Assembly (NCBI GenBank): GCA_903857825.1
Contig: CAIOGI010000009.1
Location: 7,203 to 71,202, forward strand
Direction: 5' to 3'
Source: Candidatus Tayloriibacteriota bacterium
GTDB lineage: Bacteria > Patescibacteriota > Minisyncoccia > Phycocordibacterales > PALSA-1337
DNA length: 64,000 nucleotides
The notes below the pieces were generated by a model. That model did no database searches. It worked only from the letters and a program-made list of their open reading frames with translations, and was not told the DNA's origin. Shown in pieces: positions 1,997 to 47,154 of this stretch (the stretch's first letter is position 1; each line of letters starts with the position of its first letter). The translations under genes were made by a program, and so were the position numbers.

Positions 1997-2296
1997 GGCT
2001 GTCAGCTCAACGAGCATCTTGCCATTCCCTAGCTAGGGAGACGTAGTCTTACGACCACATCATTTACATTTTCCCCTATCCTTTCGGAAATAGCAAGGCA
2101 ATGTTAATCAAAAGTCCATTGGTAGCATCTGGCTAGAATAGCCTGATCCCTTTCGGGTACAATGGAATAATATTCGGTTGTCACTACATCCTAGTGTAGT
2201 GTCTAGCCATTGTCAAGAAGGATTATTCATTATGTAGTGTTGTTAAAGCAAAAATACTATATTGTCAATCAAAATAAGGGTATTTTGACCATTCCA

Positions 2297-2331
2297 TAAA
2301 AAAGTCGCAACGGTTTTTAGGCGTTGCGACA
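2297..2331 (-). terminator. rho-independent terminator downstream of ORF 2356-3372
   Basis: On the minus strand: GTCGCAACG-cctaaaaac-CGTTGCGAC followed by TTTTTTAT. Confidence 0.5.
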
Positions 2332-2355
2332 GATTTTTGACGGAATAGACACAGA

Positions 2356-3372
2356 TTAATCCAGTCTTTTCCGCATTTCCTTCAAGAACCAGATTACCTC
2401 GGTATTTAGGGTCGGCAGAGGCTCATTTGTGCCCACCTTTACTGGTATAGAGACCCTTGGATGGATTCCCAGAAGATCCCCTATCACGATGATCCGACCA
2501 CTTTCTTTGCTGATACGGTTGAATAGGTCGATTGCAACATTCAGGAAGGTGACTGATAGCTCCCGAGCATTCTCGGCAGGCATGCTTGTCCACTTTTCCA
2601 TCATACCAAATGGTAAAATGTAAGGATAGGCACAACTGTGGCTTTCCGCTGTTTGAACCGGCGCGAAGCTATGAGCTACATGCACACCGACAACACGTCC
2701 GCATCCAGGAACGAATGGGATAAGGTCGCGGTCGGCGATCCACTCGAACAGATTTTCGAAAGCATGAACGATCACGAGCTCGCCTTTGAAGGCTTTCTCG
2801 ATGACCGCCTTAGCCCCGATATCACAGAAGCCAACGATGACTGTAACAACATTTACGCCACGGGCTTCGAGCTCCTTGAGAATGTAAAGACAGGTATTGC
2901 CCCTGAATGCCCCTTCCTTGGCAAGAATCACGGGGCGGCCTGCAATTCTAAGGGTCAGATCGTCAAACTGCTTGTCGAGGTAATCAAAGCCTGGACGCGG
3001 ACCGTACCCGAGCATTTTGCCGTCCCTATCAAAGAGCCGGTTAATGCTTAGGTTCAGACCTTCCTGATTCGGATTCAAATCGTCCATCTCTGAGCAGGTG
3101 ACCAGAACGGCATGCCGATTATTCACAGCGATACATTCATGGACTTGATCCCAGATTTCTAACCTGAGATCATTCTTGTCGACGGGGTGAATCGCAGCAT
3201 TCGGAAATGCACGAGTTACCCTCTCGAGAAGACTTTGGTGCAGATGTCCGAATATTGGATCATCCAGATTCGGGACCGTCAGACCTTTCGATAGGAACGA
3301 TTGTAGACCGCTTGCTACGTCAAAGGAAACCACGCAGGTTCCCTGACGAGCTACTGGACTGGCAGATTGCAT
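2356..3372 (-). CDS. hypothetical protein (higher-GC gene next to the integrase); function not recognised
   Basis: 338-aa ORF with coding-like composition. No motif assignable with confidence. Confidence 0.45.
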   Translation of the reverse strand: MQSASPVARQGTCVVSFDVASGLQSFLSKGLTVPNLDDPIFGHLHQSLLERVTRAFPNAAIHPVDKNDLRLEIWDQVHECIAVNNRHAVLVTCSEMDDLNPNQEGLNLSINRLFDRDGKMLGYGPRPGFDYLDKQFDDLTLRIAGRPVILAKEGAFRGNTCLYILKELEARGVNVVTVIVGFCDIGAKAVIEKAFKGELVIVHAFENLFEWIADRDLIPFVPGCGRVVGVHVAHSFAPVQTAESHSCAYPYILPFGMMEKWTSMPAENARELSVTFLNVAIDLFNRISKESGRIIVIGDLLGIHPRVSIPVKVGTNEPLPTLNTEVIWFLKEMRKRLD

Positions 3373-3461
3373 AGGAACCTCCCTTTCTTGTGGTTGTTGA
3401 GTTGACTACGTTGAAAGAACACATCTGCTCTAGTCTATATTGGAATCAGCGAGAATGCTAC

Positions 3462-3779
3462 TTATTTATCCTCACCCTTGAGTCGCTCAATCATCATCTT
3501 GTATCCTCCACATCCTTCCTTCAGCCAGCGGTTGATCTTTGTAATGGTTACTGGAGATTCACCTGTTTCTTCTTGAATCTGTGTAAAAGGCACACCAGCG
3601 TAGAGTTTTTTAGCGACTTCCCAACGCATAGCGAATTCTCGGAGATCCCGTTCGCTCATAAGGTCTCGAAAAAAAGCTTTAAGTTCATCCTCGTTTTTGA
3701 TAGATAAAAAAGCCTTGAGCAAATCAGGAGATTTATTCTCTAATTCAGACCATATTCCATTTTTTTCTTCTTCAGTCAT
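3462..3779 (-). CDS. TrpR-like DNA-binding protein (YerC/YecD family)
   Basis: FRDLMSERDLREFAMRWEVAKKLYAGVPFTQIQEETGESPVTITKINRWLKEG matches the YerC/YecD TrpR-like fold. Confidence 0.6.
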   Translation of the reverse strand: MTEEEKNGIWSELENKSPDLLKAFLSIKNEDELKAFFRDLMSERDLREFAMRWEVAKKLYAGVPFTQIQEETGESPVTITKINRWLKEGCGGYKMMIERLKGEDK

Positions 3780-3884
3780 AGATACATTTTATCACTTGTT
3801 ATTAATCAAGCAAAGCCGACATGTTCAAATCGATATGAAATGAGGACATTACTCAATTTTTTATATATATGGTAATTATACCCT

Positions 3885-4187
3885 ATGCCCATATATAAAA
3901 TAGATCCGTTCAAGGAAGCAAGAAAGAACGCCCATATCTGGCGTGGCGAGAATGCCACCATCTGGTACAACGAAAAGCTTGATGGATCGTTCTCTGTTCT
4001 GGTGCTATACGAATTCGGGGATAAAAAACGCAGGCTTTTTTTGGAAATCAACGATCAGGATCGGCTTATAGAATTCAAAAATGATGATTTGCTATCGGAA
4101 CAATTTTCATCATTACTACAAGAAATTCTCACTATAGAAAAGTTAATTTCAAATTCAAAAGATTTGACTGGGTCTTTACCCTTCTGA
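3885..4187 (+). CDS. hypothetical protein
   Basis: 100-aa ORF, the only plus-strand gene in this block. No recognisable domain. Confidence 0.3.
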   Translation: MPIYKIDPFKEARKNAHIWRGENATIWYNEKLDGSFSVLVLYEFGDKKRRLFLEINDQDRLIEFKNDDLLSEQFSSLLQEILTIEKLISNSKDLTGSLPF

Positions 4188-4198
4188 TTCCATCACCC

Positions 4199-5233
4199 CT
4201 ACTGAGTCTGCTCAAATGAATAATTGACGCTCTGGCTAATCGAAGTATTTTTATTGCTAAAATAATTGTTAAATATAAATACTGCACCGATAATAGCCAC
4301 AACTGCAAGTCCGTTGGTGATAAGATCAGGATGTTTTAAATTAAAATTAATGGCAGTATGCAGAACCAACGCCAATAACACTATACCGAGAATAATATAC
4401 AATATAATATTGAATGAATGATGTGGTGAAGCGACGATCCGTTCAAAAAACGAAGGTTCATTTTGATTTTGAGAAGAGACTTGGGCATTATCTGAAGATT
4501 CAGAAATAACCTTATCAGGTATCGTCTGGGTCTTATCATTTGCTTCGGGAATAGCTGTTTCAGCACCTAGAACATTTTCTGTAGGCATATCAATAGCTAC
4601 CGATTGCGTAATAGCTTGAGTATGCACTTCGTCTTTATATGCCATAGCTACTGTTTTAGTTGGCTTTGGGTTTGCGTACACTTGGGCGATAAATACCGTC
4701 TCCCTGCCTTCAAACATCCCGGTTGCCACCCCTGTTCCGACCTCTCGGTATGATGCTTTTACGATGTTTGCCCGATGGGTCGGCGAATTCATCCAGGCTT
4801 TAGTGACATCTTCCGAATCAGTAAAATTAATAGCCAAATTTTCGCCGGCATAATCATATTGATACCCGACAGTATTTAGCCAGTGCCAGGGCGTTATTCC
4901 TTCTGGGCTCGTATGTGCAAAATATCCTTTTTTGGCCATGTCATCGGCTTTCAATTGAGCCGCTTCAGTCAAAAGCGGACTTACAACGAGATCAGGAAGT
5001 TTATTGTGTTCTCTTTCTTCATTTGTCAGGGTGGCAAGAACGGCTGGCAGAACACTAGCGAGATTGGAATTTTGAACAATAGCAACAAATGTTATAGTCG
5101 GTACAATGAAAGCAAGAAGTTCAAGAACCAAAACAATGCCGACTATAGATTGAGCGTTTTTCCCATGCAAAAAATGCGGCCGAAAGTCGTTTCCATGATG
5201 AGGTATAAAATGTTTTTTCAACCAGGAAATCAT
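4199..5233 (-). CDS. CAP/SCP/PR-1 domain protein with N- and C-terminal TM segments
   Basis: GYFAHTSPEG...WMNSPTHRANIVKASYREVGTG is the CAP (YkwD-like) signature. Hydrophobic N- and C-termini. Confidence 0.6.
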   Translation of the reverse strand: MISWLKKHFIPHHGNDFRPHFLHGKNAQSIVGIVLVLELLAFIVPTITFVAIVQNSNLASVLPAVLATLTNEEREHNKLPDLVVSPLLTEAAQLKADDMAKKGYFAHTSPEGITPWHWLNTVGYQYDYAGENLAINFTDSEDVTKAWMNSPTHRANIVKASYREVGTGVATGMFEGRETVFIAQVYANPKPTKTVAMAYKDEVHTQAITQSVAIDMPTENVLGAETAIPEANDKTQTIPDKVISESSDNAQVSSQNQNEPSFFERIVASPHHSFNIILYIILGIVLLALVLHTAINFNLKHPDLITNGLAVVAIIGAVFIFNNYFSNKNTSISQSVNYSFEQTQ

Positions 5234-5300
5234 ATCGTGTTCAATTATACAACAATCCCCCGCCCTTATAAAGATGCGGGGGATTGTATATAAAGCCTTA

Positions 5301-5732
5301 CTATCCGTTGATCTCTGCTCTGGTCAGAGGACCAAAGAATCCAGTGACATATCCGATGCCTGGATGTGCTGCTTGAAACGCTTTCAGCGCCGCAAAGGTG
5401 ACTGGACCGAAATAGCCAGTATCAGTGGGATGCTTGAAAAAGCCTTCAGCGCGGAGGAGTTTCTGGAGCTCCATCACCTCATTGTCTTGCATGCCCATAC
5501 GCAAGTCTTTTGTGAAGAGGAATGTCTCCGCTCCCAAGACTCGAGGGGTTGCAACTGTTACAACGGGCACAGGAACATACCAACCTCCACCACCGCCACC
5601 ACTACTGTAACTACCACTGCTGCTGCTACTGCCACTACTTCCGTAGCCGTACGCCGTACCAAAACCAACTGCTGAAATCAGCACAAGGCTAAGTGCTGTT
5701 AGAGTTGATTTTATGAATATTTTTTTGTTCAT
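5301..5732 (-). CDS. secreted peptidoglycan-binding domain protein with a Gly/Ser-rich linker
   Basis: Signal peptide, then a poly-G/S stretch, then a PG_binding_1-like region (MELQKLLRAEGFF...GYFGPVTFAALKAFQ). Confidence 0.6.
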   Translation of the reverse strand: MNKKIFIKSTLTALSLVLISAVGFGTAYGYGSSGSSSSSGSYSSGGGGGGWYVPVPVVTVATPRVLGAETFLFTKDLRMGMQDNEVMELQKLLRAEGFFKHPTDTGYFGPVTFAALKAFQAAHPGIGYVTGFFGPLTRAEING

Positions 5733-5854
5733 AATTTTTTATTTGGCGATATTATTAAAGCCAAACATTTATTAATAATAATTATACTATAGACCAAACG
5801 CGAAGTTAAGGCTTTTATTCACGTTCCAAACATGTTACCATAAAAGAAAGTTAT

Positions 5855-7363
5855 ATGCAAGAGTCAACTTATCCACAAACAAAAAGGACAAATCTAACAT
5901 ATGGCCTACTGGCTGTGTTCTCTGCCGTTCTGATCTTGGGCGGTTTTTTTCGACTCTATAATCTGGGATCTCAGTCATATTGGATGGATGAAGGATATAC
6001 AATCAACGCGGTCAAGGCGATCCAAGAAAAGGGTTCGACAATTCTTGATTCAGGTCTTCCTTATTTTTGTCCTATGTACTGTTATCCGACGGCACTTATA
6101 TCAAACGCCTTAGGTGCTTCGCCGACAAGTTATCGCTTACTTTCAGTTTTGACAGGTCTGGCATTCATTGTAGCAATGTTTTTTATTACGCGAAAATTGT
6201 TCAATCAGAATGTAGCCATGTTAACATCTGTAGCACTGACTTTTTCATATTGGCAGATCGCATGGTCGCGCCAAGCTCGCTGGTACACCCTGTTTGCTTT
6301 ATTCTTCTGGGTTGCGCTTTATTTTTTTCATCAATCACTTTATGGAGAAAAGAACAGAGCTTGGCATGGTATTTTTGCTGTCGTTTTCACTATCTTCGCA
6401 ATTATGACTCATGGCTTGGGATACCTCTTGCCCTTGATATTCATCGGCTGGATCCTGATTGATCGAATATTCTTAGGCAAAAAAATGAACTTTGGATACC
6501 TGATCAAGGTGATCAGTACCATAGTTGTCTTGGCTACAATCTCGCTAGTATTTCTATCGCAAAAGTTTGGAATTCATTATGAGCTTCCCTACTATGTCAG
6601 TTTTTACATAAGAGCTTATTGGCTTTTCTTGATATTTTTGATAATCGGATTCTTTGCGATTACGCATTCAATGAAACGAGAAATGTATTTCTTACTTTTT
6701 GTTCTATTATCGTATCTTATTCCTCTCTCATTTCTAACAAACATAGTCCATTACAGATACCTTTTTCATGTCACTCCAGTATTCATACTGCTTGGCACAG
6801 CTGGCATGTTAGCGATCAATGATAATTTGAAAAATAACTACACGAAATCATCATTTTGGATCGTACTCACTATCCTATTCTTTACTATCGGCGGCGGAGT
6901 CTTTATTCCACGTACTGAATATTTTTTGGAATCCGATAATCCAGAAACAATCGGTGAGAGACCATCGTACGCCTATACACCGCAACCAGATTGGAATGCT
7001 GCATATGAATTTCTCGAGATAAACAGAGAGGAGGGAGACATTGTCATATCAAGTCAGCCGCAATTTACCAAGATTTTTCTTAATGATCCAGGATATTGGA
7101 TCAAGTACGACTATCTTGGTTTTGCAGACCAGGTAAAGGAACCTACAGGCGACACTGAATACTATGTTGGAGCAAAAGTAATTGATGATCTACAGGAACT
7201 TCAGGTAATTGCTTCGTCTGCGCATGGTTTTGTTATATTCGATCATATGTCCGCGGATGGAAAGATTGCGGAAAATATTATCAGCTACATTCGAGACAAT
7301 TTCAAGTTGGTGTTTGAAAAAAAGACAAACCCTTGGTCAGAGGTGTGGATTTATAAATTCTAA
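5855..7363 (+). CDS. GT-C fold integral membrane glycosyltransferase-like protein (ArnT/PMT, GT39/83-like)
   Basis: Eleven or more predicted TM helices. The N-terminal loop YWMDEGYTINA resembles the polyprenyl-P-sugar dependent GT-C transferases. Confidence 0.5.
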   Translation: MQESTYPQTKRTNLTYGLLAVFSAVLILGGFFRLYNLGSQSYWMDEGYTINAVKAIQEKGSTILDSGLPYFCPMYCYPTALISNALGASPTSYRLLSVLTGLAFIVAMFFITRKLFNQNVAMLTSVALTFSYWQIAWSRQARWYTLFALFFWVALYFFHQSLYGEKNRAWHGIFAVVFTIFAIMTHGLGYLLPLIFIGWILIDRIFLGKKMNFGYLIKVISTIVVLATISLVFLSQKFGIHYELPYYVSFYIRAYWLFLIFLIIGFFAITHSMKREMYFLLFVLLSYLIPLSFLTNIVHYRYLFHVTPVFILLGTAGMLAINDNLKNNYTKSSFWIVLTILFFTIGGGVFIPRTEYFLESDNPETIGERPSYAYTPQPDWNAAYEFLEINREEGDIVISSQPQFTKIFLNDPGYWIKYDYLGFADQVKEPTGDTEYYVGAKVIDDLQELQVIASSAHGFVIFDHMSADGKIAENIISYIRDNFKLVFEKKTNPWSEVWIYKF

Positions 7364-7366
7364 AAA

Positions 7367-8497
7367 ATGAATTTGCTTAAATATCTGAACAGAGGTAAAT
7401 TAATCGTAATGAAACAATTTTGGAATAATGTCAAAGATGGTCAATGGCTCAAATCACATGCTTTTTGGTTAAGATTTTTTGCATACGGGATACCATTTGC
7501 TTTTCTTCTATATATGCTTTATTGGAACTTTTTGCCTTTCGGATACGATAAAGAGTTTGTTATAGATGTCGGATCACCTTCTGATATGTCTGGAGAATTT
7601 AGGCTTAAGCCGTCAGAGTACCTGTCGGATCGAATGTCTACCACTACCATGAATGGTTTTGTAGAGACTTGGAGAGAAATTAGTGGACCAATTTATGCAG
7701 TGTATAACCCTTCAGGAGTTCTTCGCGATAAACGCATGTATATTGATGTTGAAGGTGACAATGTTACAGTAATGCCGTTAGAAATTAGTGACGATTATAG
7801 TAGATATGACTGGGATTATATATGGGATTTCACACATGGTTCCAAACCAGCTGAATTTTATGGTAAAGCAGATTTTTTCTCAGATAACAGTACTCAAGCA
7901 TGTGCTTACTTTGACGGAAATTCGGGAGACCGGCTCGAGTTGTCAAATTCTGCCGATCTTTTTGAAGATCAGGCATTCTCTGTATATGTAAACTGGCAAC
8001 CAGATAACGACGCAACGAGTTCTCAACAAATTGTCGGACATTATAATTGGGAACTCTTTCAAAATCGTGATAGCGTTGTCTTCCAAGTAGGCAGAATGAG
8101 TAATCAGAATGGCCCTTTTTTCTCCATTCGGTATCCTGTCACTCCTGATTTTTTTGGGAGGAAACATGCAGCATTGGCTATATATAATCCCTCCAATGAA
8201 GACGGCCGTATTGATCTGTATATTGACGAACGATATGTTGGCAGGACATATTTTCAGCGGTTGAGAATATGGCCTGGCTATAATAGTAATCGAGATCTTT
8301 CTTTTGGTAAGAGCGAACATGGAAATGGTACATATTTTACAGGATGTATATTTAGATCCGCTATTATGAATGGAGTAGCAATCAGCGATAGAAAAAACTT
8401 ATCATATCGCATAAATGGTATGGGTGAAATCTCCATACCACTAATGACCACAGGAAGATCAGTAATCCGATCCGTAATTTTACGCGTCAATAATTAG
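7367..8497 (+). CDS. membrane-anchored LamG/concanavalin-A-like lectin domain protein
   Basis: One N-terminal TM segment. FSVYVNWQPDN...ALAIYNPSNEDGRIDLYIDERYVG matches the LamG jelly-roll pattern. Confidence 0.4.
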   Translation: MNLLKYLNRGKLIVMKQFWNNVKDGQWLKSHAFWLRFFAYGIPFAFLLYMLYWNFLPFGYDKEFVIDVGSPSDMSGEFRLKPSEYLSDRMSTTTMNGFVETWREISGPIYAVYNPSGVLRDKRMYIDVEGDNVTVMPLEISDDYSRYDWDYIWDFTHGSKPAEFYGKADFFSDNSTQACAYFDGNSGDRLELSNSADLFEDQAFSVYVNWQPDNDATSSQQIVGHYNWELFQNRDSVVFQVGRMSNQNGPFFSIRYPVTPDFFGRKHAALAIYNPSNEDGRIDLYIDERYVGRTYFQRLRIWPGYNSNRDLSFGKSEHGNGTYFTGCIFRSAIMNGVAISDRKNLSYRINGMGEISIPLMTTGRSVIRSVILRVNN

Positions 8498-8498
8498 A

Positions 8499-10442
8499 AT
8501 GACTAACATCTCCACAATTAACAGAAAATCATATAGAGCATGGATCGTATTTCGTACATACTTTGTTACGCCTTTTTGTCTCACTTCGTTTTCAATTGGT
8601 ATAGGACTTTATATCTATTCTTTTTTTTCAAATTCCTTTATTTGTCCAAGCTGGGTATTAATTATTTCATCGATACTCGGATATATAGCGATCCTTAACC
8701 GCATTCATGATAGATTTAGAATATCACTACTGATCTTCATTTCTTGCTTGTTCTATTTGCTGATAATAATTCTAACTGGGGCTGATGGAGTTTTTCTGAA
8801 AATCACAAACTCAGTTGCATTTTCGGTTATGATTTCCTCTTTGGCTTATCTTTGCATTAGTAAAATTTTTTATCACTCAGAGAATAGTTCAGGTCTTGAG
8901 GCCATCAGTAAAAGTAAGAAGGGTCTATACATATTTCCATGTCTGCTGGTCATCCTAATTTCATTTGGAATATTTATACGTATGAAAGGTGTTGCTTCAC
9001 TTGGTTTTTGGTTCGATGAATCGATTTCAGCGCTAGTGGCACAGCGCATCTCCGGTGGATGGTCGGACACATTCCTATCCGGAATTCATTATGGACGGGG
9101 ACTTTTCTATCACTATATACTTTCCCTATTTACTGGATCATTCGAAAATATATATTTTGCCAGTCGACTAGCTAATGTAGTCTTCTTCATTCCAACAAGT
9201 ATTGTTGTTTATCTCTGGACTAAGAGAATTCGTGGCGAATACGCGGCTACTATAGCCACGAGCATATTTTGCTTAGCACCATTTAATATAGCAATGTTTC
9301 GCGAAGCTAGATTCTATGAATTCTTATCACTACTAGTAATTTTGATTGGATTCTTTTCGTATATTCTCATTGAGAAGATCATTAAACAAAATAAAGGGAA
9401 AATACTGATATCTAAAATTAAAATTGACCTGGAAACTATTTTGCTATTCGCAATGATTGTGGTACTGGGTATCTTAGCATTACAAACTAATGAAATTGTC
9501 GCCTATCTGATTTATTTTCCAATTGTTTTTGGTCTATATATGCTGGTAATCTTTCGAGAAAAATTTGGAATTTATCTTATCCTTTCCTTTTTTTCACTAT
9601 TAATCGCAGCACTGCTTATTAAATATGGTCTAGATTTCAAATATATCTATATATTCAAACAACCACAAATACCATGGAAGGCTTTGACATCAGCAGAAAG
9701 TTTCTCGGCTTTCTTTCACTATTTTCTCAGTATTGCCGATCCATATTTTCGAATCATTATTCCAATCGGCTTTCTATGGATTACGACAAGATTAAAGGAT
9801 TGGAAGGCTCAGTATGTATTCCTGTTTGTGATCTGTATCTACTCAATTATAAGCATACAAGGATATGGATTGGCCGGTTTGAGATATTACTATTTTTTAA
9901 TGCCCTTCGTTGCCATTATTATCGGATTAAGTTTATGGAACCTCTTTTTGTTTTCAAATAATAAAATCGTTAGAATTTTTTCATCATTACTAATTATAAT
10001 GATACTTAGCGGCTATTTTATTGCAGGTATAAAAGAATCTAACGCTGTGGTAAATAGTGATTCAGTTGTTGATATTAAAAACGTTCAGCTAAATGATTCG
10101 TTTGCTTATTTACTTAGCCGGCCAGATATCCAAACATCAACAATCATTTCTGATCTGCATAGTTCAGTTCCATTCTACATTTATTCATCACGTATTCCGG
10201 ATTTCTTAATAGCTGAAGATCCTAAAATCGAACCAAACATTGTTCGTAACGGAAAAGATATATACCTTGGTATGAAAACAATAAACTTCACCGATATCGC
10301 TTCCATAAGTGATCAAAATACTTATGTTATTAACTGGTATTCTCCATCCCTGACTCCTAAAAACATGCAGGAGTTTTTACAAAATAATGGTGAATTAATT
10401 TACAAGCATGGACCAGAACGTATTTATCTTATTAGGAAATGA
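8499..10442 (+). CDS. GT-C fold integral membrane glycosyltransferase-like protein (ArnT/PMT-like)
   Basis: 647 aa and polytopic. GFWFDESISALVAQRISGGW loop. Large C-terminal periplasmic domain. Confidence 0.5.
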   Translation: MTNISTINRKSYRAWIVFRTYFVTPFCLTSFSIGIGLYIYSFFSNSFICPSWVLIISSILGYIAILNRIHDRFRISLLIFISCLFYLLIIILTGADGVFLKITNSVAFSVMISSLAYLCISKIFYHSENSSGLEAISKSKKGLYIFPCLLVILISFGIFIRMKGVASLGFWFDESISALVAQRISGGWSDTFLSGIHYGRGLFYHYILSLFTGSFENIYFASRLANVVFFIPTSIVVYLWTKRIRGEYAATIATSIFCLAPFNIAMFREARFYEFLSLLVILIGFFSYILIEKIIKQNKGKILISKIKIDLETILLFAMIVVLGILALQTNEIVAYLIYFPIVFGLYMLVIFREKFGIYLILSFFSLLIAALLIKYGLDFKYIYIFKQPQIPWKALTSAESFSAFFHYFLSIADPYFRIIIPIGFLWITTRLKDWKAQYVFLFVICIYSIISIQGYGLAGLRYYYFLMPFVAIIIGLSLWNLFLFSNNKIVRIFSSLLIIMILSGYFIAGIKESNAVVNSDSVVDIKNVQLNDSFAYLLSRPDIQTSTIISDLHSSVPFYIYSSRIPDFLIAEDPKIEPNIVRNGKDIYLGMKTINFTDIASISDQNTYVINWYSPSLTPKNMQEFLQNNGELIYKHGPERIYLIRK

Positions 10443-11697
10443 TAGGTGCCTTCACCTCTGATCGAACAAGGGCTTTAATTCTCATGAAATAAATAACTCG
10501 GACAGTTACAAGCATGCATATAGATGCTATCAAAGTTGCGTATATCGGTCCCATATATCCCATAAGACGTAATAATATAATACTGAGAACAACATTAAAA
10601 ATGGCAAGTACGGAATAAAATATCGTCATAATTTTTGCATGGCCAGTGGGAATGATGATACCTAAATCAACTGTTAGGGCAGAAGCATAGAAAACAAAAA
10701 TCATTACTGAAAACGGTAAAATTTGAAATAATAGATCATTGTAATATGCCGGATAAAATTGCTTAACGAAAATAGGAATGAGAAACATGCTTATAGTTCC
10801 GATTGTTACTGCCGCCAACATAGTCAGTAGCGTATATTTTTTTAGATGTGAGTGGATACTTTTATATTCCCCCCGCATATTCAAATGAGTGAAGTTTGGT
10901 GCAATTACCTGGGCCAAGATCGCAAAAGGACCCGATAAAATCATAAAGATGCGATTCAAAAAGTCATAGGTGGCAATTTGGTCAAGATACCCGTAGTGAC
11001 CAAGTAAAACTATATCTGTGCGAGAAAAGATCTGGTAACCAACTGCAGCAACCCCACAAATAAATGAATAGGTGGCAATATTCTTTAGGACAGACCGGTC
11101 TATTCTAAAACTCAATTCTTTATGTGCAATCGCTAGTGCGATAATCAGAATGGAATAAAATACAATTTGGCTTACCATCGCTCCGTATATGCCATATTTC
11201 TGGACTAGAAAATATATAGGAATAACGAAAACAATCCCTATACCCATAGTGATCAGTGATAAATATTTAAATCTTTTTAAACCGCGAAAAATCCCATCAT
11301 AAAGATAGGAGATCGGGATTAGAAATGTGAGAATGACTATGAATAAAACATAACTCACTTGCATATGTAGGATGTATGTATTTATAACAATAAAGCCTAG
11401 TGAGAGCGTGGCTGCTACTGTCGCAATCAGTATAAATGAACTTGCTACAATTGATTTTAGTTTTGTCTGGTCGGTTTTCGAGTACTCAGCGACATACTTA
11501 CTTGTGGCTGTCGATATCCCGAAGTCCCCCACTAACCCAAGTAGAACGGCAATTGATGATACATAGCTATAAAGACCCACCTTCCCAGGATCTACAAGAT
11601 GCGCCACGATGAAGAATATGAATATATTCATTCCTTGTTTTACGATTAATTGCGCACCTCTCCAAATGGAGGATTTGATTATATTATTCATGTTCAT
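10432..11697 (-). CDS. Wzx-like oligosaccharide flippase / polysaccharide biosynthesis protein (MOP superfamily)
   Basis: 12-14 TM helices with a polysacc_synt-like layout. Lies next to the GT genes. Confidence 0.55.
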   Translation of the reverse strand: MNMNNIIKSSIWRGAQLIVKQGMNIFIFFIVAHLVDPGKVGLYSYVSSIAVLLGLVGDFGISTATSKYVAEYSKTDQTKLKSIVASSFILIATVAATLSLGFIVINTYILHMQVSYVLFIVILTFLIPISYLYDGIFRGLKRFKYLSLITMGIGIVFVIPIYFLVQKYGIYGAMVSQIVFYSILIIALAIAHKELSFRIDRSVLKNIATYSFICGVAAVGYQIFSRTDIVLLGHYGYLDQIATYDFLNRIFMILSGPFAILAQVIAPNFTHLNMRGEYKSIHSHLKKYTLLTMLAAVTIGTISMFLIPIFVKQFYPAYYNDLLFQILPFSVMIFVFYASALTVDLGIIIPTGHAKIMTIFYSVLAIFNVVLSIILLRLMGYMGPIYATLIASICMLVTVRVIYFMRIKALVRSEVKAPIIS

Positions 11698-12649
11698 TTT
11701 GGAAATAACGATATGAAATCATCGCTGTGTTAATTGTTACAAGTGACAAAGTGTCCATCCAGGGTTTAACAAGGAAACTTTCAAAAAACATTCCTGTCTC
11801 TATAAATGATTTGGCTGACAGACCAAACACGGCCACAATATATGAGATCAATAGTACATTCGATATAAAGGGGGCAATAAATATAGATACCAATAAAAAT
11901 GCTAGTCCAATCAAGGGAATATTATATTTAAATAGAAGACTAAAAGGGTCCTTCTTGTTATTTTTTATCAGAAAATTTCTTGATCTAGCCCCTTTTATCC
12001 ATACCCTGAATAATTCACCAAACTCTGAACGATTTTTATGCAGCAACTTTGCTTGTGGGTTATATTGAATTAAGTAACCAACTTTTCTTACTCTCTGGCA
12101 TATTTCCTTGTCTTCGGATCGAGGTATCTCAATTGATCCATTCTCAAACTTCTCGAGAAAATATCCAGATTCCTCTAACACAGCTCTCCTTATTGTAAGG
12201 TTGCACCCAGGATATGTTTGGACTTTCCTGGTTTTCAGATATCGGGGATATCCCTCAAACAGAGAAACTCCTAAGTAATCAGATACCCATGTTTTTATCA
12301 TAGGCATAACCATTCCTCCCCCAGCCCCCACATTCGGGTTCCTAAATGTCTCCTCATGATATTTCAGATAGTCTTTGTCTAGTTTTAAGTCTACATCCAA
12401 AAAAACCAGTATTGCTCCTGATGAATTAATTATTCCACAATTTCTTGCCTCAGAAAGTCCTCGTCTTTTTTCAGTTAGCACTTTAATAGGATATTTTGAC
12501 GCAACTTTCAGGGAGTTATCAGTCGAATCATTGTCAACATACACTATTTCATACTGATCTTTTGGGTAATCCTGTACAAGACAGGATTCAATGCACGAAT
12601 CCAAATTTTCTTGTTCATTATATCCACAAATAATTAAGCTGAATTTCAT
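11684..12649 (-). CDS. family 2 glycosyltransferase
   Basis: LIICGYNEQENL...VDNDSTDNS...FLDVDLKL, the GT2 DXD pattern. C-terminal TM segments. Confidence 0.75.
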   Translation of the reverse strand: MKFSLIICGYNEQENLDSCIESCLVQDYPKDQYEIVYVDNDSTDNSLKVASKYPIKVLTEKRRGLSEARNCGIINSSGAILVFLDVDLKLDKDYLKYHEETFRNPNVGAGGGMVMPMIKTWVSDYLGVSLFEGYPRYLKTRKVQTYPGCNLTIRRAVLEESGYFLEKFENGSIEIPRSEDKEICQRVRKVGYLIQYNPQAKLLHKNRSEFGELFRVWIKGARSRNFLIKNNKKDPFSLLFKYNIPLIGLAFLLVSIFIAPFISNVLLISYIVAVFGLSAKSFIETGMFFESFLVKPWMDTLSLVTINTAMISYRYFQNEHE

Positions 12650-13767
12650 AAATATTTACTATATTGCCTCGATATAATTTCTCTGTCATAAAACTTAATC
12701 GCTCTTTGCCGTCCTTCGTCTCCGAGAGCGGATATCCTATTCCAGTCCAAAACTAGAAGATTAATCGTCTTACCGATGGTTTGATCGTTTTCAGGAGGAA
12801 CAACTAATCCTGAACCGTTTATTATTTCCACGCAGCCAGAAGAATTACTTGTAATCACAGCACACCCTGCTAACATTGCCTCAAGTAATACCATTCCAAA
12901 ACTCTCATATTTAGATAAAAGACAAAATATGGCCGCCTGCTCCAATAAATCCTTATATTCTTTTCCATTGTTATCAAGCCAGCCATGAAAAATAATTTTT
13001 GTTTTAGATCTTTCAGCGAGTTGCTTGAGTTCATTCATCATCGGACCGTCGCCCGCTATATGGACTTCCCATTTTATATCTTCGTCTGATACAGCCCTGA
13101 TCAAATGCTGAAAACCTTTACTTCGCAATAATCGTCCTGAAGAAAATATTATTTTCCTTTTCGATTGAGGGTGAAACTTTTCAATATCAATTCCATTGGG
13201 AATTATTATTATTTTTTTACGATCAAACCTAGGATATACCTTTACTATCTTATTTCTAAGAAAGTCTGATGGTGAAATAACAATCTTCGCATTGTCCAAT
13301 ATAATTTTCCATATTTTTACAAGAAATGGATATATCATTTTGAATCTAGAATTATACCCAATAACATCGCTTCCATGAGCCGTTACTATAAATGGCAGAC
13401 CAAACTGTTTTTTAAGTATATATGACAAAATTCCTGTAGGAATGATGAAATGGGAGTGGCAGATATCGTAATAATTTTGCTTAAGCAAACTTCTACACTT
13501 TAAATATCCAAACAGTAAATATGTGAGTTGTTCCCAAGGATGACAGATTTCCTTTCTACTTCGTAGAGACTTTACTCGATAGATTCTAAATGAATCGTTA
13601 ATTTTTTCATACGCCGGCAGGAGCTTATAACTCATAGTGACCACATCGATGTCAAATTCTCCAGTTTCGCTCAATCCTTCAGCAATATCATAAGACACTG
13701 GACTTGCTCCGCCACCTAGAGGCGGAAATTCGTAATTTAGCAGAAGTATCCTTTTCTTGGTTGCCAT
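12646..13767 (-). CDS. family 4 (group 1) glycosyltransferase
   Basis: GT4 C-terminal signature ESFGMVLLEAMLAGCAVITSNSSG... Confidence 0.8.
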   Translation of the reverse strand: MATKKRILLLNYEFPPLGGGASPVSYDIAEGLSETGEFDIDVVTMSYKLLPAYEKINDSFRIYRVKSLRSRKEICHPWEQLTYLLFGYLKCRSLLKQNYYDICHSHFIIPTGILSYILKKQFGLPFIVTAHGSDVIGYNSRFKMIYPFLVKIWKIILDNAKIVISPSDFLRNKIVKVYPRFDRKKIIIIPNGIDIEKFHPQSKRKIIFSSGRLLRSKGFQHLIRAVSDEDIKWEVHIAGDGPMMNELKQLAERSKTKIIFHGWLDNNGKEYKDLLEQAAIFCLLSKYESFGMVLLEAMLAGCAVITSNSSGCVEIINGSGLVVPPENDQTIGKTINLLVLDWNRISALGDEGRQRAIKFYDREIISRQYSKYL

Positions 13768-14705
13768 TATTTTCTTATAATTTCGCGCACATAATAACGC
13801 TTTTCATATGGTGAGTTATTCAGATGAATCCGGATCAGGAAATCCATGATGATACCAAAGCTGAAAAACATGATACCCGCGATAAAGAGAAAAGCTGTGA
13901 GAAAGAACCATCCATTTCTATTGAGGGAAAGTCCAAAAACAACTTTTCCATATATAGTCCAGAAACCGGAGAGGAAACCTACAAAAAAAGAGGCGAGACT
14001 AAGGTATCCGAAAAGATGAAGGGGGCGCTGTGAATATTTCTGGATGAACCAGATCTTTATTAGGTCAATAAAGCCACGAATGGCTTTCGTGCAGTTATAT
14101 TTACTTTTTCCGTTAACCCTGGGTCGATGATTTACTATGATCTCACCTATTCTGAAACCTTTCCATTTCAGGATCGGCAGGATATAGCGATGCATCTCAC
14201 CGCCGATATCAAGACTTTTTGCGGCTTCTCTTTTATAAACACGCAGAGTGCAACCAGTATCATGTACAACGTCTGAGATAATAAGCCGACGCATGAGTCT
14301 TCCCATGCGAGTAAGAATATTTATGCTTCCATTATCCTTTCTTTTCTTGCGCCAACCTGCCACAACATCAAGATCGTCCTGTGTCAGTTTCTCAACAAGT
14401 TTGGGAATATCAGCAGGATCATTTTGTCCGTCTCCATCAAGAGAAATTATGAAATTACCGTCCGCCGCCTTGAAGCCAGCATCCAACGCCACAGCTTGTC
14501 CGTAGTTTCGGTTCAAATTGATTATAGTGACACCGTGAAGGGATTTCAGCTCTCCTAGAGTAGAATCGGTACTTCCATCGTTGATATAGATAATCTCGGA
14601 ATAGCCACGAAGATGGCTCATTGCCGACTTTATTTCACTGTCTAGATTTGTTATGTTTCCTGCTTCGTTAAAGACTGGAACAATGACTGAGTATTCATTT
14701 TTCAT
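13767..14705 (-). CDS. polyprenyl-phosphate sugar synthase (GtrB/DPM1/ArnC-like GT2)
   Basis: SVIVPVFNEAGNI...INDGSTD...LDGDGQND, plus two C-terminal TM helices as in GtrB. Confidence 0.8.
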   Translation of the reverse strand: MKNEYSVIVPVFNEAGNITNLDSEIKSAMSHLRGYSEIIYINDGSTDSTLGELKSLHGVTIINLNRNYGQAVALDAGFKAADGNFIISLDGDGQNDPADIPKLVEKLTQDDLDVVAGWRKKRKDNGSINILTRMGRLMRRLIISDVVHDTGCTLRVYKREAAKSLDIGGEMHRYILPILKWKGFRIGEIIVNHRPRVNGKSKYNCTKAIRGFIDLIKIWFIQKYSQRPLHLFGYLSLASFFVGFLSGFWTIYGKVVFGLSLNRNGWFFLTAFLFIAGIMFFSFGIIMDFLIRIHLNNSPYEKRYYVREIIRK

Positions 14706-14779
14706 GTTTTAAAGTATAACACATAATATATTGGTTGTCTATTTATCGTGACTAAGGCTTTTGATTTTAAATCATCTAC

Positions 14780-15148
14780 TTATTCCAAGTGTAAATATAT
14801 TTTTTGCTCCCGAATTTTTGATGCCTCAGCTAGAGCTGATGAAATTTCATTTAAATGAAGTCGGATCATCTCGTTTGGTATGTGCATTGTATCGAATCCA
14901 CTTTTATGTGAGTAGTAACCACGACTTAAATCAGACACAATTTGCTCGGGGTTTGTAAGATGTTGTATACCATCGACCTCGATATTAATTTTTGCCTTAG
15001 GAATCGCTAGATCTATGTGCTTAAATCCATCATGAAGTTCTACCAAAACACGAACTCCCTTTTCCTCCAGAGCATTTTTTAAATCGGATGCTTCCTTTGT
15101 TGGAGTTCGATATTTTTTTATTATAATTTTCTGATTTGTTTCTTCCAT
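14780..15148 (-). CDS. DUF559 endonuclease-domain protein (Vsr/restriction-endonuclease-like fold)
   Basis: HIDLAIPKAKINIEVDGIQH matches the DUF559 D...E.DG..H core. Confidence 0.5.
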   Translation of the reverse strand: MEETNQKIIIKKYRTPTKEASDLKNALEEKGVRVLVELHDGFKHIDLAIPKAKINIEVDGIQHLTNPEQIVSDLSRGYYSHKSGFDTMHIPNEMIRLHLNEISSALAEASKIREQKIYLHLE

Positions 15149-15191
15149 AATAAATCTATAATTCTTCTGCTAATCTATTAACATTTTTTTA

Positions 15192-15947
15192 TTAATAATT
15201 TGGGTCAGCGGCATTTGCTGCTTTTCTATAATTACAATGATCACAATCCTGAGCTGCAATTGGCATTTTTCCATCAAGACATTTTTTGATATCGAACAAA
15301 GATTTTTCAACCCATGTACTGTCACCAGTATAGGGTAAAATATCTATATCAAAATCTATTTTTGCGTCAAAGGCTTCGCGGTCTGTCTTACCGTTGCAAT
15401 ACACGAAATATCCTGTATTTGAAACTTTGAATCCTGTTTGGCGTAATAGCCACTGATACATTTCCATTTGACGTTTATAACCCATCTGCCATTCTGCATC
15501 GAGAGTCACTTTAGCTGGCTTACTAGTCGCTTTATAGTCTACAACCACAATCTCACCAGTTTTATCTACCCATAGGTCATCTACAGCTCCTGTCATTATA
15601 AAATTCGTTGGCTTATGATGGTATTGAACCCCTTTGAAGTTCTCTCGCCATTCATTGATCTTTTCATGCTTAAAGGGGACCATATCGAGGCTATAAGCCT
15701 TCATTAGGGGGTGTGGAGTCCCCTTCGCTCGATGTATGTCAAACTCCTTCTTTAGAAGAGTATCTACAGCCGAATTTATGGCAAATGGAAATGGTGGAAT
15801 CTGGCCTACCCCAAGTCGACGATCGATATAAAAACATTTGGGGCATTTTGTGTATAGTTCGATTTTTGATCGAGACAATTTGAAAGGCTCCGTGCTTGCC
15901 GGATCATAGAGGTTTCGTATTCTGTTCGCCTTATAATATTCTGACAT
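15192..15947 (-). CDS. Cas4-like PD-(D/E)XK nuclease (DUF83, RecB family) with a four-Cys cluster
   Basis: CPKC at the N-terminus and CDHC at the C-terminus. GAVDDLWVD, VVVDYKAT (D-x-K) and the QxxxY motif KRQMEMYQWLL. Confidence 0.6.
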   Translation of the reverse strand: MSEYYKANRIRNLYDPASTEPFKLSRSKIELYTKCPKCFYIDRRLGVGQIPPFPFAINSAVDTLLKKEFDIHRAKGTPHPLMKAYSLDMVPFKHEKINEWRENFKGVQYHHKPTNFIMTGAVDDLWVDKTGEIVVVDYKATSKPAKVTLDAEWQMGYKRQMEMYQWLLRQTGFKVSNTGYFVYCNGKTDREAFDAKIDFDIDILPYTGDSTWVEKSLFDIKKCLDGKMPIAAQDCDHCNYRKAANAADPNY

Positions 15948-15950
15948 GTT

Positions 15951-16847
15951 TTATAGGCTATACTGGTAAGATTGGCTGATATAGTCAAGTGCTGCAACTA
16001 TTTCTTCAGGTTTCTCTATTCTAAACTTCGTTTCTCCGGTTCCCCAGTGTCCTTTTTGACTTACATCATGTAATTCGATTCCATTCCTCTTGATCCTGTC
16101 TACAGGCATCGTTATGTGAATCCATAATCCTTTTGCCTGAGGAATAATCTCGCAAAAAATATTTTCAATTTTATAACTGATATATAGTTTGGTAAACTTT
16201 TCCTCTATGTTGGTATCGAGTTCAAAAATCTTCTCTTTTAGTTGATCATAAAGTTCTCGACTTTCTTTCCAACTATCACGAAATAAATGATTTATCGTGT
16301 ATTCTTTTCCGTATTCCCGGACAGGTTTTTCATCGTCTTCACTTACTAGTTTCTTTGATCCACTTAGTTTGAATCCCTTCTGAAAGTTTTCTACATCAAC
16401 CGAAAGAAGGTCGTCATAGAGACGATATTTTAGAAGCTCGATTGTGAACGGCAAAAACTTCACAAGTCCAAGATCAAATTTGTTATAACTTTCAGCTACA
16501 CAAATGACTCGAGGAGATGACCAATCAACTATTATCTCCAGTTTTTTAGCTTGAACAAGTTTTTCAAACTTCTCCTTATGATCAAGAAGCCATTCAAGAT
16601 ACCATGTAGCTTGATTTATTACAGAATCATTCTGAGTACGCTTATATTCAATTATAACGGGAGATCCATTTTGATCAATTCCGATTGTATCGATTCTACC
16701 TTCATTGGTAGTGAACTCAGTATCAAGAAAATAAATACCTAGAATCTCCTTCAGGTTTTCCTCTATTAATCGTTGAATGTCTCGTTCAACAACGCTTCGC
16801 TTTTCGATCTTCACCGCTTTATTATTTTGTATTTTGAATAGAGGCAT
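15951..16847 (-). CDS. NucS/DUF91-like PD-(D/E)XK nuclease domain protein with C-terminal extension
   Basis: GRIDTIGIDQNGSPVIIEYKRTQNDSVINQATWYLEWL parallels the NucS motif G.IDILA.D..G.LVVIELKR...Q..RY..W. Confidence 0.45.
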   Translation of the reverse strand: MPLFKIQNNKAVKIEKRSVVERDIQRLIEENLKEILGIYFLDTEFTTNEGRIDTIGIDQNGSPVIIEYKRTQNDSVINQATWYLEWLLDHKEKFEKLVQAKKLEIIVDWSSPRVICVAESYNKFDLGLVKFLPFTIELLKYRLYDDLLSVDVENFQKGFKLSGSKKLVSEDDEKPVREYGKEYTINHLFRDSWKESRELYDQLKEKIFELDTNIEEKFTKLYISYKIENIFCEIIPQAKGLWIHITMPVDRIKRNGIELHDVSQKGHWGTGETKFRIEKPEEIVAALDYISQSYQYSL

Positions 16848-16940
16848 ACAATGTGGATGTTCTCAATATGATAACATGCGAAAAGAATTAATTGAAGGCC
16901 TGATATAGATTTCGAACCGTAACTCTGATATAATTATTTA

Positions 16941-18323
16941 ATGAAAAATATCTGGCTTCTCACCGAAGAACGACCTAAAAACGATGTCATTCTCACTATT
17001 TTGAATAAGGTCGGGACAGACAATAATTTTAAAGTTCAATCTGAGGGTGCGAAGGTTATACCTATTATGAAAGATGGTTGTTTTACTTTTTTATACAAAG
17101 TTGAAGATGTTAAATGCGAAGGATTTGAAAATATATTTATTAAAATAGCCAGTGGTAATTCTAGCTTCGTCGATTTTTTGATATTTCTCCAAGAAGCAGA
17201 GCCTGATCAAAGTTCAAAACCTCTCTATGCAATAGAAGAAACGAAAACCGATGATTCAGAATCTCGTAACACAGGAGTCTACCAACGCTGTAGTAAGTTT
17301 GTATATGTAGAATTCTATTATCCGGGCATTAGGAAAATAATGCTCTACAGTTTGCAGATCAAGCAAAAAATAAAACCAACAGTAACCAATATTTTCGGCA
17401 CACGAATGCTACGAACGATAGGCGTTGAAATTCTTGGCAAAACATTTGATGAGGAAGTCATGAGACCATTCACGAGCCTCGATGAGCTAGTTCAAGCAAA
17501 GAGTGCTATGAGAATGCCCCCGACCGGTAATGTCCCTATTCAAATCGAGGTGCACCCTGACAAAATCACAGTATCAGGAAGGCTTTTTAAAGCTGGTGGG
17601 ATAGGCCATGACCCTAATATCGGCGCACTCACCATCATAGCTCTCTGTATTAGACGTTGGGAAAAAGAAAAGCCAATCATCATAACCAAACATGGTTTAT
17701 CTCAAGAACATCTTGGAAGAGGAAACAAATTTATTCAGATCGCCAACAGGCTCAATATCGGGCTTGATGGTTTAAATGTCCAAATTGCAACTCAACATGA
17801 GCTTTATTGGCATTATGAAATGTCCCAAGAAAAGCTAGCCACTATATTTCTCCACGTCCTATTACTCAATTACACGAAAGCAGAAGTCATCTATGCCAAC
17901 CATGGAGGCACGGAGAGAGGATACTTTATGCACAAAGTTCAGGGACCGATCGTGATTGAGAAATATCAAGAAGGAAAACGAGCCGCATATAAGCTTGGCG
18001 ACAAATCTCTGATTATTCACTTACCAGACATGATCATTTTTGATACTGCTAGAAATCAGATCATCAATGTCGAGGGTAAAAAGTATAGTACACGAGCAGC
18101 TGGTATCGAGGAGTTGGCAAACTATTCCTACATTGAAGAAAAAGTGATTCTACCTTCACATAGTCCTTCGGCTTTTATCAGGACCGTTGTTGTTTTTGGT
18201 AGCAAAGAAACTGAACTTAAGGAAAAAGAGATCGGATTTATGCTAAATGAAAATGGAGATCTTGTGTTGGGTAAATATGCTCCTGAAATATTTAAAGAAG
18301 TAGTATCAAAAGCTACAGCCTAG
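16941..18323 (+). CDS. candidate type II restriction endonuclease (context only)
   Basis: 460-aa ORF convergent with the adjacent adenine MTase and overlapping it tail-to-tail by 4 nt. No conserved motif; this is the usual R-M layout. Confidence 0.3.
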   Translation: MKNIWLLTEERPKNDVILTILNKVGTDNNFKVQSEGAKVIPIMKDGCFTFLYKVEDVKCEGFENIFIKIASGNSSFVDFLIFLQEAEPDQSSKPLYAIEETKTDDSESRNTGVYQRCSKFVYVEFYYPGIRKIMLYSLQIKQKIKPTVTNIFGTRMLRTIGVEILGKTFDEEVMRPFTSLDELVQAKSAMRMPPTGNVPIQIEVHPDKITVSGRLFKAGGIGHDPNIGALTIIALCIRRWEKEKPIIITKHGLSQEHLGRGNKFIQIANRLNIGLDGLNVQIATQHELYWHYEMSQEKLATIFLHVLLLNYTKAEVIYANHGGTERGYFMHKVQGPIVIEKYQEGKRAAYKLGDKSLIIHLPDMIIFDTARNQIINVEGKKYSTRAAGIEELANYSYIEEKVILPSHSPSAFIRTVVVFGSKETELKEKEIGFMLNENGDLVLGKYAPEIFKEVVSKATA

Positions 18324-19441: not shown

Positions 19442-19442
19442 A

Positions 19443-21307: not shown

Positions 21308-21338
21308 TAAATTTATTTTAATTGATTAATAATTCGAC

Positions 21339-46515: not shown

Positions 46516-46521
46516 TGATTA

Positions 46522-47149: not shown

Positions 47150-47154
47150 TGTAT

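Follow-up and report, generated by a model that had tools for sequence, protein, structure and literature searches.

A 45.5-kb temperate phage of a candidate phyla radiation bacterium with a probable envelope-glycosylation module as mobile cargo

Introduction

Lysogenic conversion by glycosylation is a long-established concept, and the locus described here adds no new principle to it. The locus lies in a 64,000-nucleotide stretch of contig CAIOGI010000009.1 (assembly GCA_903857825.1, Candidatus Tayloriibacteriota bacterium, positions 7,203 to 71,202 of the forward strand), which is called the window throughout; coordinates refer to it unless another locus is named. In our reading, to which we assign a probability of about 0.72, the window contains a 45.5-kb temperate phage which carries, in a variable slot, a mobile and conserved nine-gene envelope-glycosylation module of the candidate phyla radiation (CPR), acting by the mechanism proposed below.

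The closest described systems are the gtrABC cassettes of Shigella flexneri (phages SfI, SfII, SfV and SfX) and of the Salmonella phage P22. These are prophage morons located between the late genes and int/att, and they encode a GtrB-type synthase, a flippase and a polytopic transferase of the glycosyltransferase (GT) type GT-C which acts outside the membrane. In the Shigella phages, gtrABC abuts attP opposite int (PMC3636060). The outcome is a surface change together with phage exclusion (PMC3636060), and the same would be expected here.

Three-component systems of a GT2, a flippase and a GT-C modify O-antigen and Gram-positive wall polymers (PMC8035078, PMC11127046). In the Gram-positive systems CsbB/GtcA/YfhO, GtlA/GtlB and lactococcal Csd, the GT2 makes a C55-P-sugar, the flippase moves it and the GT-C transfers the sugar outside. 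The targets are teichoic acids or wall polysaccharide, and phage adsorption depends on these decorations (PMC8035078, PMC7389260). Actinobacterial and eukaryotic protein O-mannosylation combines PMT with Ppm1/DPM1.

Phages of CPR bacteria have also been linked to glycosylation. PMC12455944 describes Paceibacteria prophages with an average size of 43.7 kb and with a C5-methylase and 'glycosyl transferases group 1' among their cargo; its supplements hold no details on the reported GT 'AMG' (auxiliary metabolic gene). LamG/concanavalin and GT genes in CPR phages were read as cell-surface modification in PMC11310336 and PMC12911398. The general phenomenon, GT and LamG genes in CPR phages, is already known from surveys. 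These publications list single annotated genes, whereas a whole module is present here. In the CPR-phage literature searched, the nine-gene module, the GtrB-Wzx-GT-C logic, the synteny outside phages, the phage slot and the gap-tail attachment site were not found.

The nine-gene module

The conserved unit comprises nine genes in 10.5 kb (4199-14705), whose open reading frames (ORFs) are intact and tightly packed or overlapping, with gaps of only 122 bp and 74 bp. The initial annotation had named seven of these genes, all of which are intact ORFs at the coordinates it gave. It placed the start at 5855, however, and this has to be moved to 4199 so as to add the genes for a CAP-domain protein and a PG_binding protein. 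The nine genes are listed below with E-values; L and P numbers denote other loci and contigs used for comparison.

4199-5233, minus strand: CAP/SCP-domain membrane protein (Pfam CAP, 1.2e-16); syntenic in L100, L103 and L110, present in L091
5301-5732, minus strand: small secreted or anchored PG_binding_1 protein (Pfam, 1.1e-10); syntenic in L100, L103 and L110; dN/dS (ratio of nonsynonymous to synonymous substitution rates) 0.013
5855-7363, plus strand: GT-C of the PMT_2 family (PF13231, 8e-9, above the curated cut-off); W-M-D-E motif in the first external loop
7367-8497, plus strand: membrane-anchored LamG/ConA-like protein (AlphaFold2 model, Foldseek, PF13385 in homologues)
8499-10442, plus strand: putative second, divergent GT-C related to PMT_2 (profile comparison; W-F-D-E motif)
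10432-11697, minus strand: MOP/Wzx-type flippase (Polysacc_synt), 421 aa (Pfam, 1e-19; WzxE structure 9G95, 1e-4)
11684-12649, minus strand: GT2 with a C-terminal membrane segment (Pfam); a variable module member, replaced by a GT1 at this position in L103
12646-13767, minus strand: GT4 (Pfam)
13767-14705, minus strand: GtrB/ArnC/DPM1-type polyprenyl-phosphate GT2 with a DGDGQ motif and a C-terminal transmembrane (TM) hairpin

Of the nine proteins, five reside in the membrane, either polytopic or anchored, and have extracytoplasmic domains. The CAP protein is composed of an N-terminal TM segment, an external CAP domain, a low-complexity linker and two C-terminal TM segments. The PG_binding protein consists of a signal or TM segment, a Ser/Gly-rich linker and the PG_binding_1 domain, and is a candidate acceptor; in its L103 homologue the linker is Gly-rich, not Ser-rich.

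The GtrB-like protein matches the ArnC and Synechocystis GtrB structures over its full length (6e-34 to 2e-30) and the PHROG 'GtrB-like O-antigen conversion' (phrog_841, 8.5e-50). Its match to the NCBIfam ArnC model (3.9e-41) is under the equivalog cut-off. The second GT-C (647 aa) has itself no Pfam or PDB match, but its family aligns with the PMT_2 family over 438 columns which include the W-x-D-E motif (hhalign 99.5%, E-value 9e-23), and PF13231 is matched by nine of its 32 members. This loop motif is invariant across both GT-C families. An extra N-terminal segment of ~150 residues contains about four hydrophobic segments in a hydropathy scan. Sequence and profile searches of the PDB with both families gave no match, and hence no ranking among ArnT, PMT and YfhO.

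The LamG protein is likewise without a Pfam match of its own, but has more than 140 homologues at 40-50% identity, many of them with Laminin_G_3 (PF13385). Its AlphaFold2 model (65 sequences, pLDDT 89.7) shows an N-terminal membrane helix followed by a LamG/ConA-like jelly roll, for which Foldseek returns pentraxin, CBM40, LNS and legume-lectin domains. In a promoter scan, the strongest match falls in the 74-bp gap upstream of the GtrB gene and would be consistent with independent transcription; the scan total of 43, against 45.2 in shuffled sequences, is not above chance and adds no evidence for it beyond this one match.

Comparison with described systems

The locus shares with gtrABC a GtrB with a C-terminal TM segment, a polytopic GT-C predicted to act at the outer face, and carriage by a temperate phage near int/att with absence from related phages. 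It differs in having nine genes rather than three, a flippase of the MOP/Wzx type where gtrABC has the small GtrA, and two PMT_2-type GT-C in place of one Gtr(type). It also encodes a GT4, a GT2, a membrane protein with a LamG fold and two further secreted or membrane proteins that are co-conserved. No gene for a small GtrA-family flippase (~120 aa, 4-TM) lies within 4199-14705. As GtrA is lacking and size and composition differ, the module is not a gtrABC member. The initial annotation had likened its position to that of gtrABC modules. The placement between late genes and int/att agrees with this, but the exact place does not: gtrABC abuts attP opposite int, whereas the integrase gene and three small genes stand between module and att here. 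We assume that the acceptor is probably not the O-antigen of lipopolysaccharide, the host being a CPR bacterium.

The Gram-positive systems differ in that they are chromosomal and use a GtcA/GtrA-type flippase, single sugars and a YfhO-like GT-C; they have no LamG partner and no CAP or PG-binding genes. Protein O-mannosylation resembles the module in the combination of a DPM1/GtrB-like synthase with a PMT-superfamily GT-C bearing a D-E loop motif, and a Ser-rich secreted protein, a possible acceptor, is encoded next door. Yet the Pfam match is to PMT_2 (PF13231) and not to PMT (PF02366), no PMT or ArnT structure was matched by sequence, and Wzx, GT4 and GT2 are present in contrast to the PMT pathways.

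A Wzx (MOP) flippase is also found in the Wzx/Wzy pathway. However, Pfam and NCBIfam searches found no phosphoglycosyl-transferase, Wzy, O-antigen-ligase or STT3 domain in the nine proteins, and in particular no Wzy_C match. A WbaP/WecA-type initiating enzyme had no match in the module or in L091 and L103, though a host-encoded one elsewhere is possible. For the archaeal Agl pathway, no match to STT3/AglB was found; below threshold, the GtrB-like protein resembles AglJ (1e-21) and the GT2 resembles AglG (5e-14). Judged by its predicted domains, the module is neither a Wzx/Wzy nor an STT3 system.

The prophage and its attachment site

All of the best relatives of the protein encoded by gap (GAPDH) come from metagenome-assembled genomes (MAGs) of Patescibacteria/Paceibacteria, and the host is therefore a CPR bacterium. 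The features which delimit the phage are the following.

584-599, no strand: att core copy at the integrase end (GTATACCCCATTTCAT), with an older gap-tail relic on its host side
976-1968, minus strand: tyrosine integrase (Pfam Phage_integrase, 1.4e-24), the sole integrase detected in 600-46148
21339-22394, minus strand: endolysin-like protein with a C-terminal PG_binding_1 domain, the last conserved late gene
46149-46164, no strand: att core copy at the gap-proximal end; its phage side is a replacement gap 3′ tail identical to the gap-completing tail of L004

From 21339 to ~46000, domain and PHROG scans detect a complete tailed-phage gene set: lysin, tail fibres, tube, capsid, protease, portal-MuF, large terminase, two methylases, a RepO-like protein and an AAA_24 protein. 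Every ORF of the terminase, portal, protease, capsid, tube, tail-fibre, lysin, replication and integrase genes is intact. The 16-bp core GTATACCCCATTTCAT, which encodes E-M-G-Y near the C-terminus of GAPDH, occurs at 584-599 and, with one mismatch, at 46149-46164. Two more copies are located at 48076, which is the true gap 3′ end, and at 47204, within a relic, but none between 600 and 46148; the chance expectation is 0.61 in the whole window.

Comparison with relatives supports these limits. In L004 (CAYOTK010000002.1), a MAG of a different species whose gap is only 75% identical to that of the window, a closely related prophage directly adjoins gap. In the gap-proximal part compared, it shows ~85% nucleotide identity to the window phage, with proteins 88-99% identical, and its junction aligns to window 46180-45993. 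The presence of so similar a phage at the same site in a species with so different a gap implies recent transfer. Since L004 has a gap tail identical to the sequence on the phage side at window 46149, integration takes place in the gap 3′ end, and the phage brings a replacement tail with it. In L001, a close relative with a gap 88% identical, a relic matching window 513-613 follows gap, and the 1.5 kb of contig after gap have no match to any window phage protein. Given the att cores, the single integrase and the comparisons with L004 and L001, the prophage is a single att-bounded element of 45.5 kb (600-46148), inserted at a relic copy of the gap 3′ end, and the glycosylation cluster lies well inside it.

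The element shares the host class of the reported Paceibacteria prophages and is similar to them in size. L025, the gap locus of MAG nzgw482 (JAHFNO010000001.1) from PMC12455944, has ~1.1 kb after gap, at the edge of the sequence, a stretch of 28 residues which matches a window phage gene with 75% identity.

The region downstream of gap (46140-48110 and 540-640) contains an array of degenerate gap 3′-end copies, each followed by one small ORF (224, 147, 112 and ~200 aa). Another relic lies beyond the left end of the window, and a similar one occurs in a related genome; the coordinates outside the window are 7357-7460 and 8342-8440 in L093 and 5318-5418 in L001. The appearance of the array suggests scars or mini-cassettes stacked up by repeated integration at the same site.

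A cargo slot between backbone genes

The region which holds the module is a slot bordered by phage backbone genes.

3885-4187, plus strand: 100-aa phage backbone gene at the integrase-side edge of the slot; a called gene in L093 and L100
14780-15947, minus strand: genes for a DUF559 (Vsr-like) protein and a PD-(D/E)XK/Cas4-like nuclease (Pfam, PADLOC; nuclease at 15192-15947)

The nuclease is 67-87% identical in seven related phage loci (L089, L090 and L104-L108) and, judged by this sequence conservation, is a backbone marker of the phage on the lysin side of the slot. The DUF559 gene has a homologue in L090 only. Homologues of the 100-aa gene lie beside the integrase in L106 and near the contig end in L107. 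An ORF on the opposite strand (3806-4051) was rejected as spurious, the 100-aa gene being called instead in L093 and L100.

In the window, the 10.5 kb of 4199-14705 fit exactly between these markers. In two IMG/VR phages the same interval is short: nuclease and integrase genes follow each other within ~1.5 kb in L105 (40.6 kb), with a peptidase-like gene in the slot, and within ~3 kb in L106 (36.9 kb). L106 carries a MetK-like S-adenosylmethionine synthetase gene (11734-12732) in this integrase-proximal slot, where the window holds the glycosylation module. No glycosylation genes were found in the slot of L105, L106 and L107, which contains 1-3 kb of unrelated cargo instead.

Copies of the module elsewhere

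Part of the module is found at L100 (JGI 3300027924, Ga0268731_1001402), a contig of 13.7 kb which ends within it: the CAP, PG_binding, PMT_2 and LamG genes and the start of the second GT-C gene are present, at 90% nucleotide identity to window 3842-9981. This copy stands beside an integrase only 57% identical to that of the window and is inserted next to rpsL-rpsG-fusA. The other copies are as follows.

L103 (GCA_040384245.1, 6753-17628): CAP, PG_binding, PMT_2, LamG, GT-C, Wzx, GT1, GT4 and GtrB, between YchF and G6PD
L091 (short contig): GT-C, Wzx, GT2, GT4, GtrB and CAP
L092 (among housekeeping genes): PMT_2, LamG and GT-C
L110 (short contig): CAP, PG_binding, PMT_2 and LamG
P0123 contig (short contig): LamG, GT-C, Wzx and GT2

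In each of the five other contexts seen (L091, L092, L100, L103 and the P0123 contig), the LamG gene immediately precedes a GT-C gene. dN/dS ratios between the window and L100 copies are 0.01-0.34 and indicate purifying selection. The GT2 and GT4 positions vary: a GT1 replaces the GT2 in L103, and the GT4 of L091 is only 31% identical. Such variation is the pattern expected if the copies make different glycans.

The L103 copy has no integrase within 10 kb and adjoins a Fic gene. With a GC content of 0.363 against 0.467 in its flanks, it looks horizontally acquired. Low GC is accordingly a property of the module and not of the window host, and because it travels with the module, a host-like value is no evidence for host origin. 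The initial annotation was right that the GC content is host-like (0.367 for 5855-14705, 0.362 for the host), although its figure of ~32% is too low, the measured value being 36.7%. The range within the cluster is 0.367-0.375, and the phage core has 0.452. Around the module, direct or inverted repeats that could hint at its own transposition amount to short chance-level matches.

The second GT-C is rare. Its relatives form five cluster representatives in 5.8 billion non-redundant proteins, the nearest non-self one being 38% identical, and a hidden Markov model search of 1.84e9 cluster representatives gave only 44 at E ≤ 1e-30. The cluster is therefore not conserved core in close relatives. IMG/VR scans gave marginal matches only for the second GT-C and for a LexA-Dam fusion protein described below, one truncated contig for the lysin and no match for the integrase.

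These data support the view that the module is mobile cargo in a phage and not host core: relatives hold other cargo in the slot, one copy stands beside a different integrase, and chromosomal copies exist which are integrase-free. The assignment as prophage cargo made in the initial annotation is upheld by these findings together with the att cores and the L004 prophage. The comparison it proposed, with related genomes for the cluster without the prophage, turns up the integrase-free chromosomal copies of L103 and L092 and the L100 copy. The cluster also lies, as described there, between the lysin and the integrase with the att core at 584-599, with a restriction-modification (R-M)/defence block (14780-21008) intervening on the lysin side.

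Proposed mechanism

The most economical reading of the gene set, taken from predicted protein functions, would be a four-step lipid-linked pathway. The GtrB-like GT2 would load a sugar from a nucleotide sugar onto polyprenyl phosphate at the cytoplasmic face. Elongation to a short lipid-linked glycan is probably the task of the GT4 and the membrane-anchored GT2, and the Wzx-type flippase would carry this glycan across the membrane. Finally, the two PMT_2-type GT-C enzymes with their W-x-D-E motifs may transfer the glycan to an extracytoplasmic acceptor. The lectin-like LamG membrane protein, encoded between the GT-C genes, would work with both enzymes. As acceptor, either a wall polymer, on the model of the Gram-positive systems (PMC8035078), or the co-encoded Ser/Gly-rich PG-binding protein and CAP-domain membrane protein, on the model of PMT/Ppm1 O-mannosylation, could serve.

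The surface of the lysogen would thereby be changed, which would amount to lysogenic conversion. The expected effect would be to block the adsorption of related phages, alongside the neighbouring R-M cargo; an altered attachment of the episymbiont to its partner is a possible and equally plausible consequence (PMC11310336, PMC12911398). The neighbouring cargo is anti-phage (R-M and PDC-S18) and thus fits superinfection exclusion by receptor masking. More tentatively, the module might be a self-contained, phage-transmissible 'glyco-coat' cassette which brings both glycan machinery and its own acceptors, the PG-binding and CAP proteins. A lysogen might then show a new glycoprotein layer which masks phage receptors and re-tunes episymbiont attachment. 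We regard this extended version as doubtful.

Alternative explanations

Several points weigh against our reading and are considered here with the rival explanations. The AlphaFold2 model of the second GT-C, built from five sequences, is poor (pLDDT 47.8) and was not used for a fold search, so that the GT-C assignment of 8499-10442 is a prediction from profile comparison only. With a Wzx-type rather than a GtrA-type flippase, the simple one-sugar Gtr model may not apply. We infer the sugar, the acceptor, the order of steps, the expression in the lysogen and the exclusion phenotype throughout. A LamG-profile scan of IMG/VR gave only one 6-kb contig, which indicates that the module is not commonly phage-borne. 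No sign of excision was found in the contigs searched. The attP junction (46148, core, 600; that is GAGGGTGTAT, GTRTACCCCATTTCAT and ATCGGTAC in this order) had 0 matches in IMG/VR and JGI metagenome contigs, and the empty-site junction attB (CACCAAAATATTC, core, CAATATGCCAC) had 0 matches in metagenome contigs. All contigs long enough to span both sides represent the integrated state. Around the 112-aa ORF beside attL, the contexts show only the occupied state, or contigs which break at the junction.

Such findings would also suit a decayed or domesticated prophage which no longer excises, the module being a fixed genomic island of the lineage and not the trait of a converting phage. The identical arrangement in many samples, always integrated, and the several older gap-tail relics with single ORFs, which show that the locus accumulates remnants, point the same way. 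However, the structural, lysis, replication and integrase genes are all intact ORFs, and the ~85% identical phage at the same site in another species implies recent transfer; we therefore take decay to be unlikely. Somewhat more improbable still is a composite locus, in which integrase, small genes and module (~600-14779) form a separate integrative island beside the prophage at the same gap-derived att site, unpackaged by the phage. In L100 a related integrase and the same module occur at another chromosomal site with no phage gene visible on the contig, and as the far end of that element lies beyond the sequenced part, integrase and module could travel phage-free. The module also occurs without any phage in L103 and L092, and IMG/VR has nearly no copies of it. 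Against this, no att core or gap relic separates an island from the phage between 600 and 46148, and a single integrase was detected in the 45.5 kb. Moreover, phage backbone genes that flank the module recur in independent viral contigs (the PD-(D/E)XK nuclease in L104-L108, the 100-aa gene in L106 and L107). The whole length is also inside the sizes of Paceibacteria prophages, 43.7 ± 8.7 kb (PMC12455944).

The two remaining explanations concern the origin and the target of the module. Phage glycosyltransferases that modify DNA or capsids exist (for example bioRxiv 10.1101/2023.12.21.572611), and the enzymes could act for the phage, with virion proteins or DNA as their targets instead of the host envelope. 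This is very improbable given that five of nine proteins are membrane-bound with extracytoplasmic domains, that the module is conserved in phage-free chromosomes and that related phages lack it. The least credible alternative, to be discounted almost entirely, is a host core cluster with the true prophage boundary between 14705 and 21339. The initial annotation had named conservation as host core in strains lacking the element as the counter-evidence to look for, and it was not found. The GC content of the cluster equals that of the host and not that of the phage core, and distant copies have chromosomal contexts. Yet the att cores enclose the cluster, with the integrase beyond it, and among 5.8e9 proteins no relative of the second GT-C from outside the element exceeds 38% identity. 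The R-M cargo is equally low in GC, as is the L103 copy in its genome of 46.7% GC, and L001 has gap followed by the relic, with no window phage gene match in the next 1.5 kb.

Neighbouring genes and further observations

Besides the module, the region between the late genes and att contains the following features.

2356-3372, minus strand: 338-aa protein without family match; its L100 homologue, 38% identical, is in the same place
3462-3779, minus strand: Trp-repressor-like small DNA-binding protein (Pfam, 3e-15), 63% identical in L100
15951-21008, no strand: second cargo block with a PDC-S18 candidate defence gene, a Type II restriction endonuclease, a Dam methyltransferase and a LexA-S24-Dam fusion

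The gene pair at 2356-3779, between cargo and integrase, may encode lysogeny or excision regulators of this phage group. The R-M system of the window is DpnII-like Type II, with a restriction endonuclease (16941-18323, 5e-59) and two Dam-type methyltransferases, and has the same low GC as the module. The first large gene after the lysin is a 521-aa ORF (19443-21008, minus strand) in which a LexA DNA-binding domain and an S24 autopeptidase are joined to a Dam-type methyltransferase. It heads the R-M genes for the Dam methyltransferase (18320-19441) and the endonuclease. The fusion of a self-cleaving repressor to a protective methylase is unusual and might couple R-M control or phage immunity to DNA damage.

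Among phages with a lysin 76-86% identical, the post-lysin region is variable. It contains M78, DUF4411 and methyltransferase genes in L087; Fic, Type III-like R-M, AAA/UvrD and PD-(D/E)XK genes in L089 and L090; and methylases in the P0012 contig. This post-lysin slot (14780-21338 in the window; also in L087, L089, L090 (10-20 kb) and P0012) is a hot spot for defence-type cargo, with the nuclease conserved at its far edge. In the early region of the phage, 39968-42402 (minus strand) encodes a C5 cytosine methylase and an N6/N4 methylase, with a weak ParB-like match in the gene calls of other samples. Together with the cargo R-M, this pair brings the methyltransferases of the 45.5-kb prophage to four.

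Two independent metagenome contigs, L098 and L099, stop just beyond the 112-aa ORF, at about the attL junction (~46165-46177). These ends could reflect heterogeneity between occupied and empty sites in the population, or merely assembly breaks at the repeated gap relics.

Significance

CPR bacteria, or Patescibacteria, account for a large part of bacterial diversity. Most of them are uncultured, and they rely on contact of their cell surface with other microbes. To our knowledge, little is known on how their phages shape the surface of the host. The locus offers a concrete and bounded example: a temperate CPR phage for which both the att site (the gap 3′ end) and a cargo slot are defined. The slot holds a complete and conserved putative envelope-glycosylation module, of which further copies exist in chromosomes and next to another integrase. 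From its gene content, the module most likely glycosylates the cell surface and would be the counterpart of the gtr genes of Shigella and Salmonella, assembled from different parts. The catalogue-level statement that CPR phages carry GT and LamG genes may thus be turned into a testable pathway model, in the form of a nine-gene unit which can be searched for, expressed heterologously and traced in metatranscriptomes.

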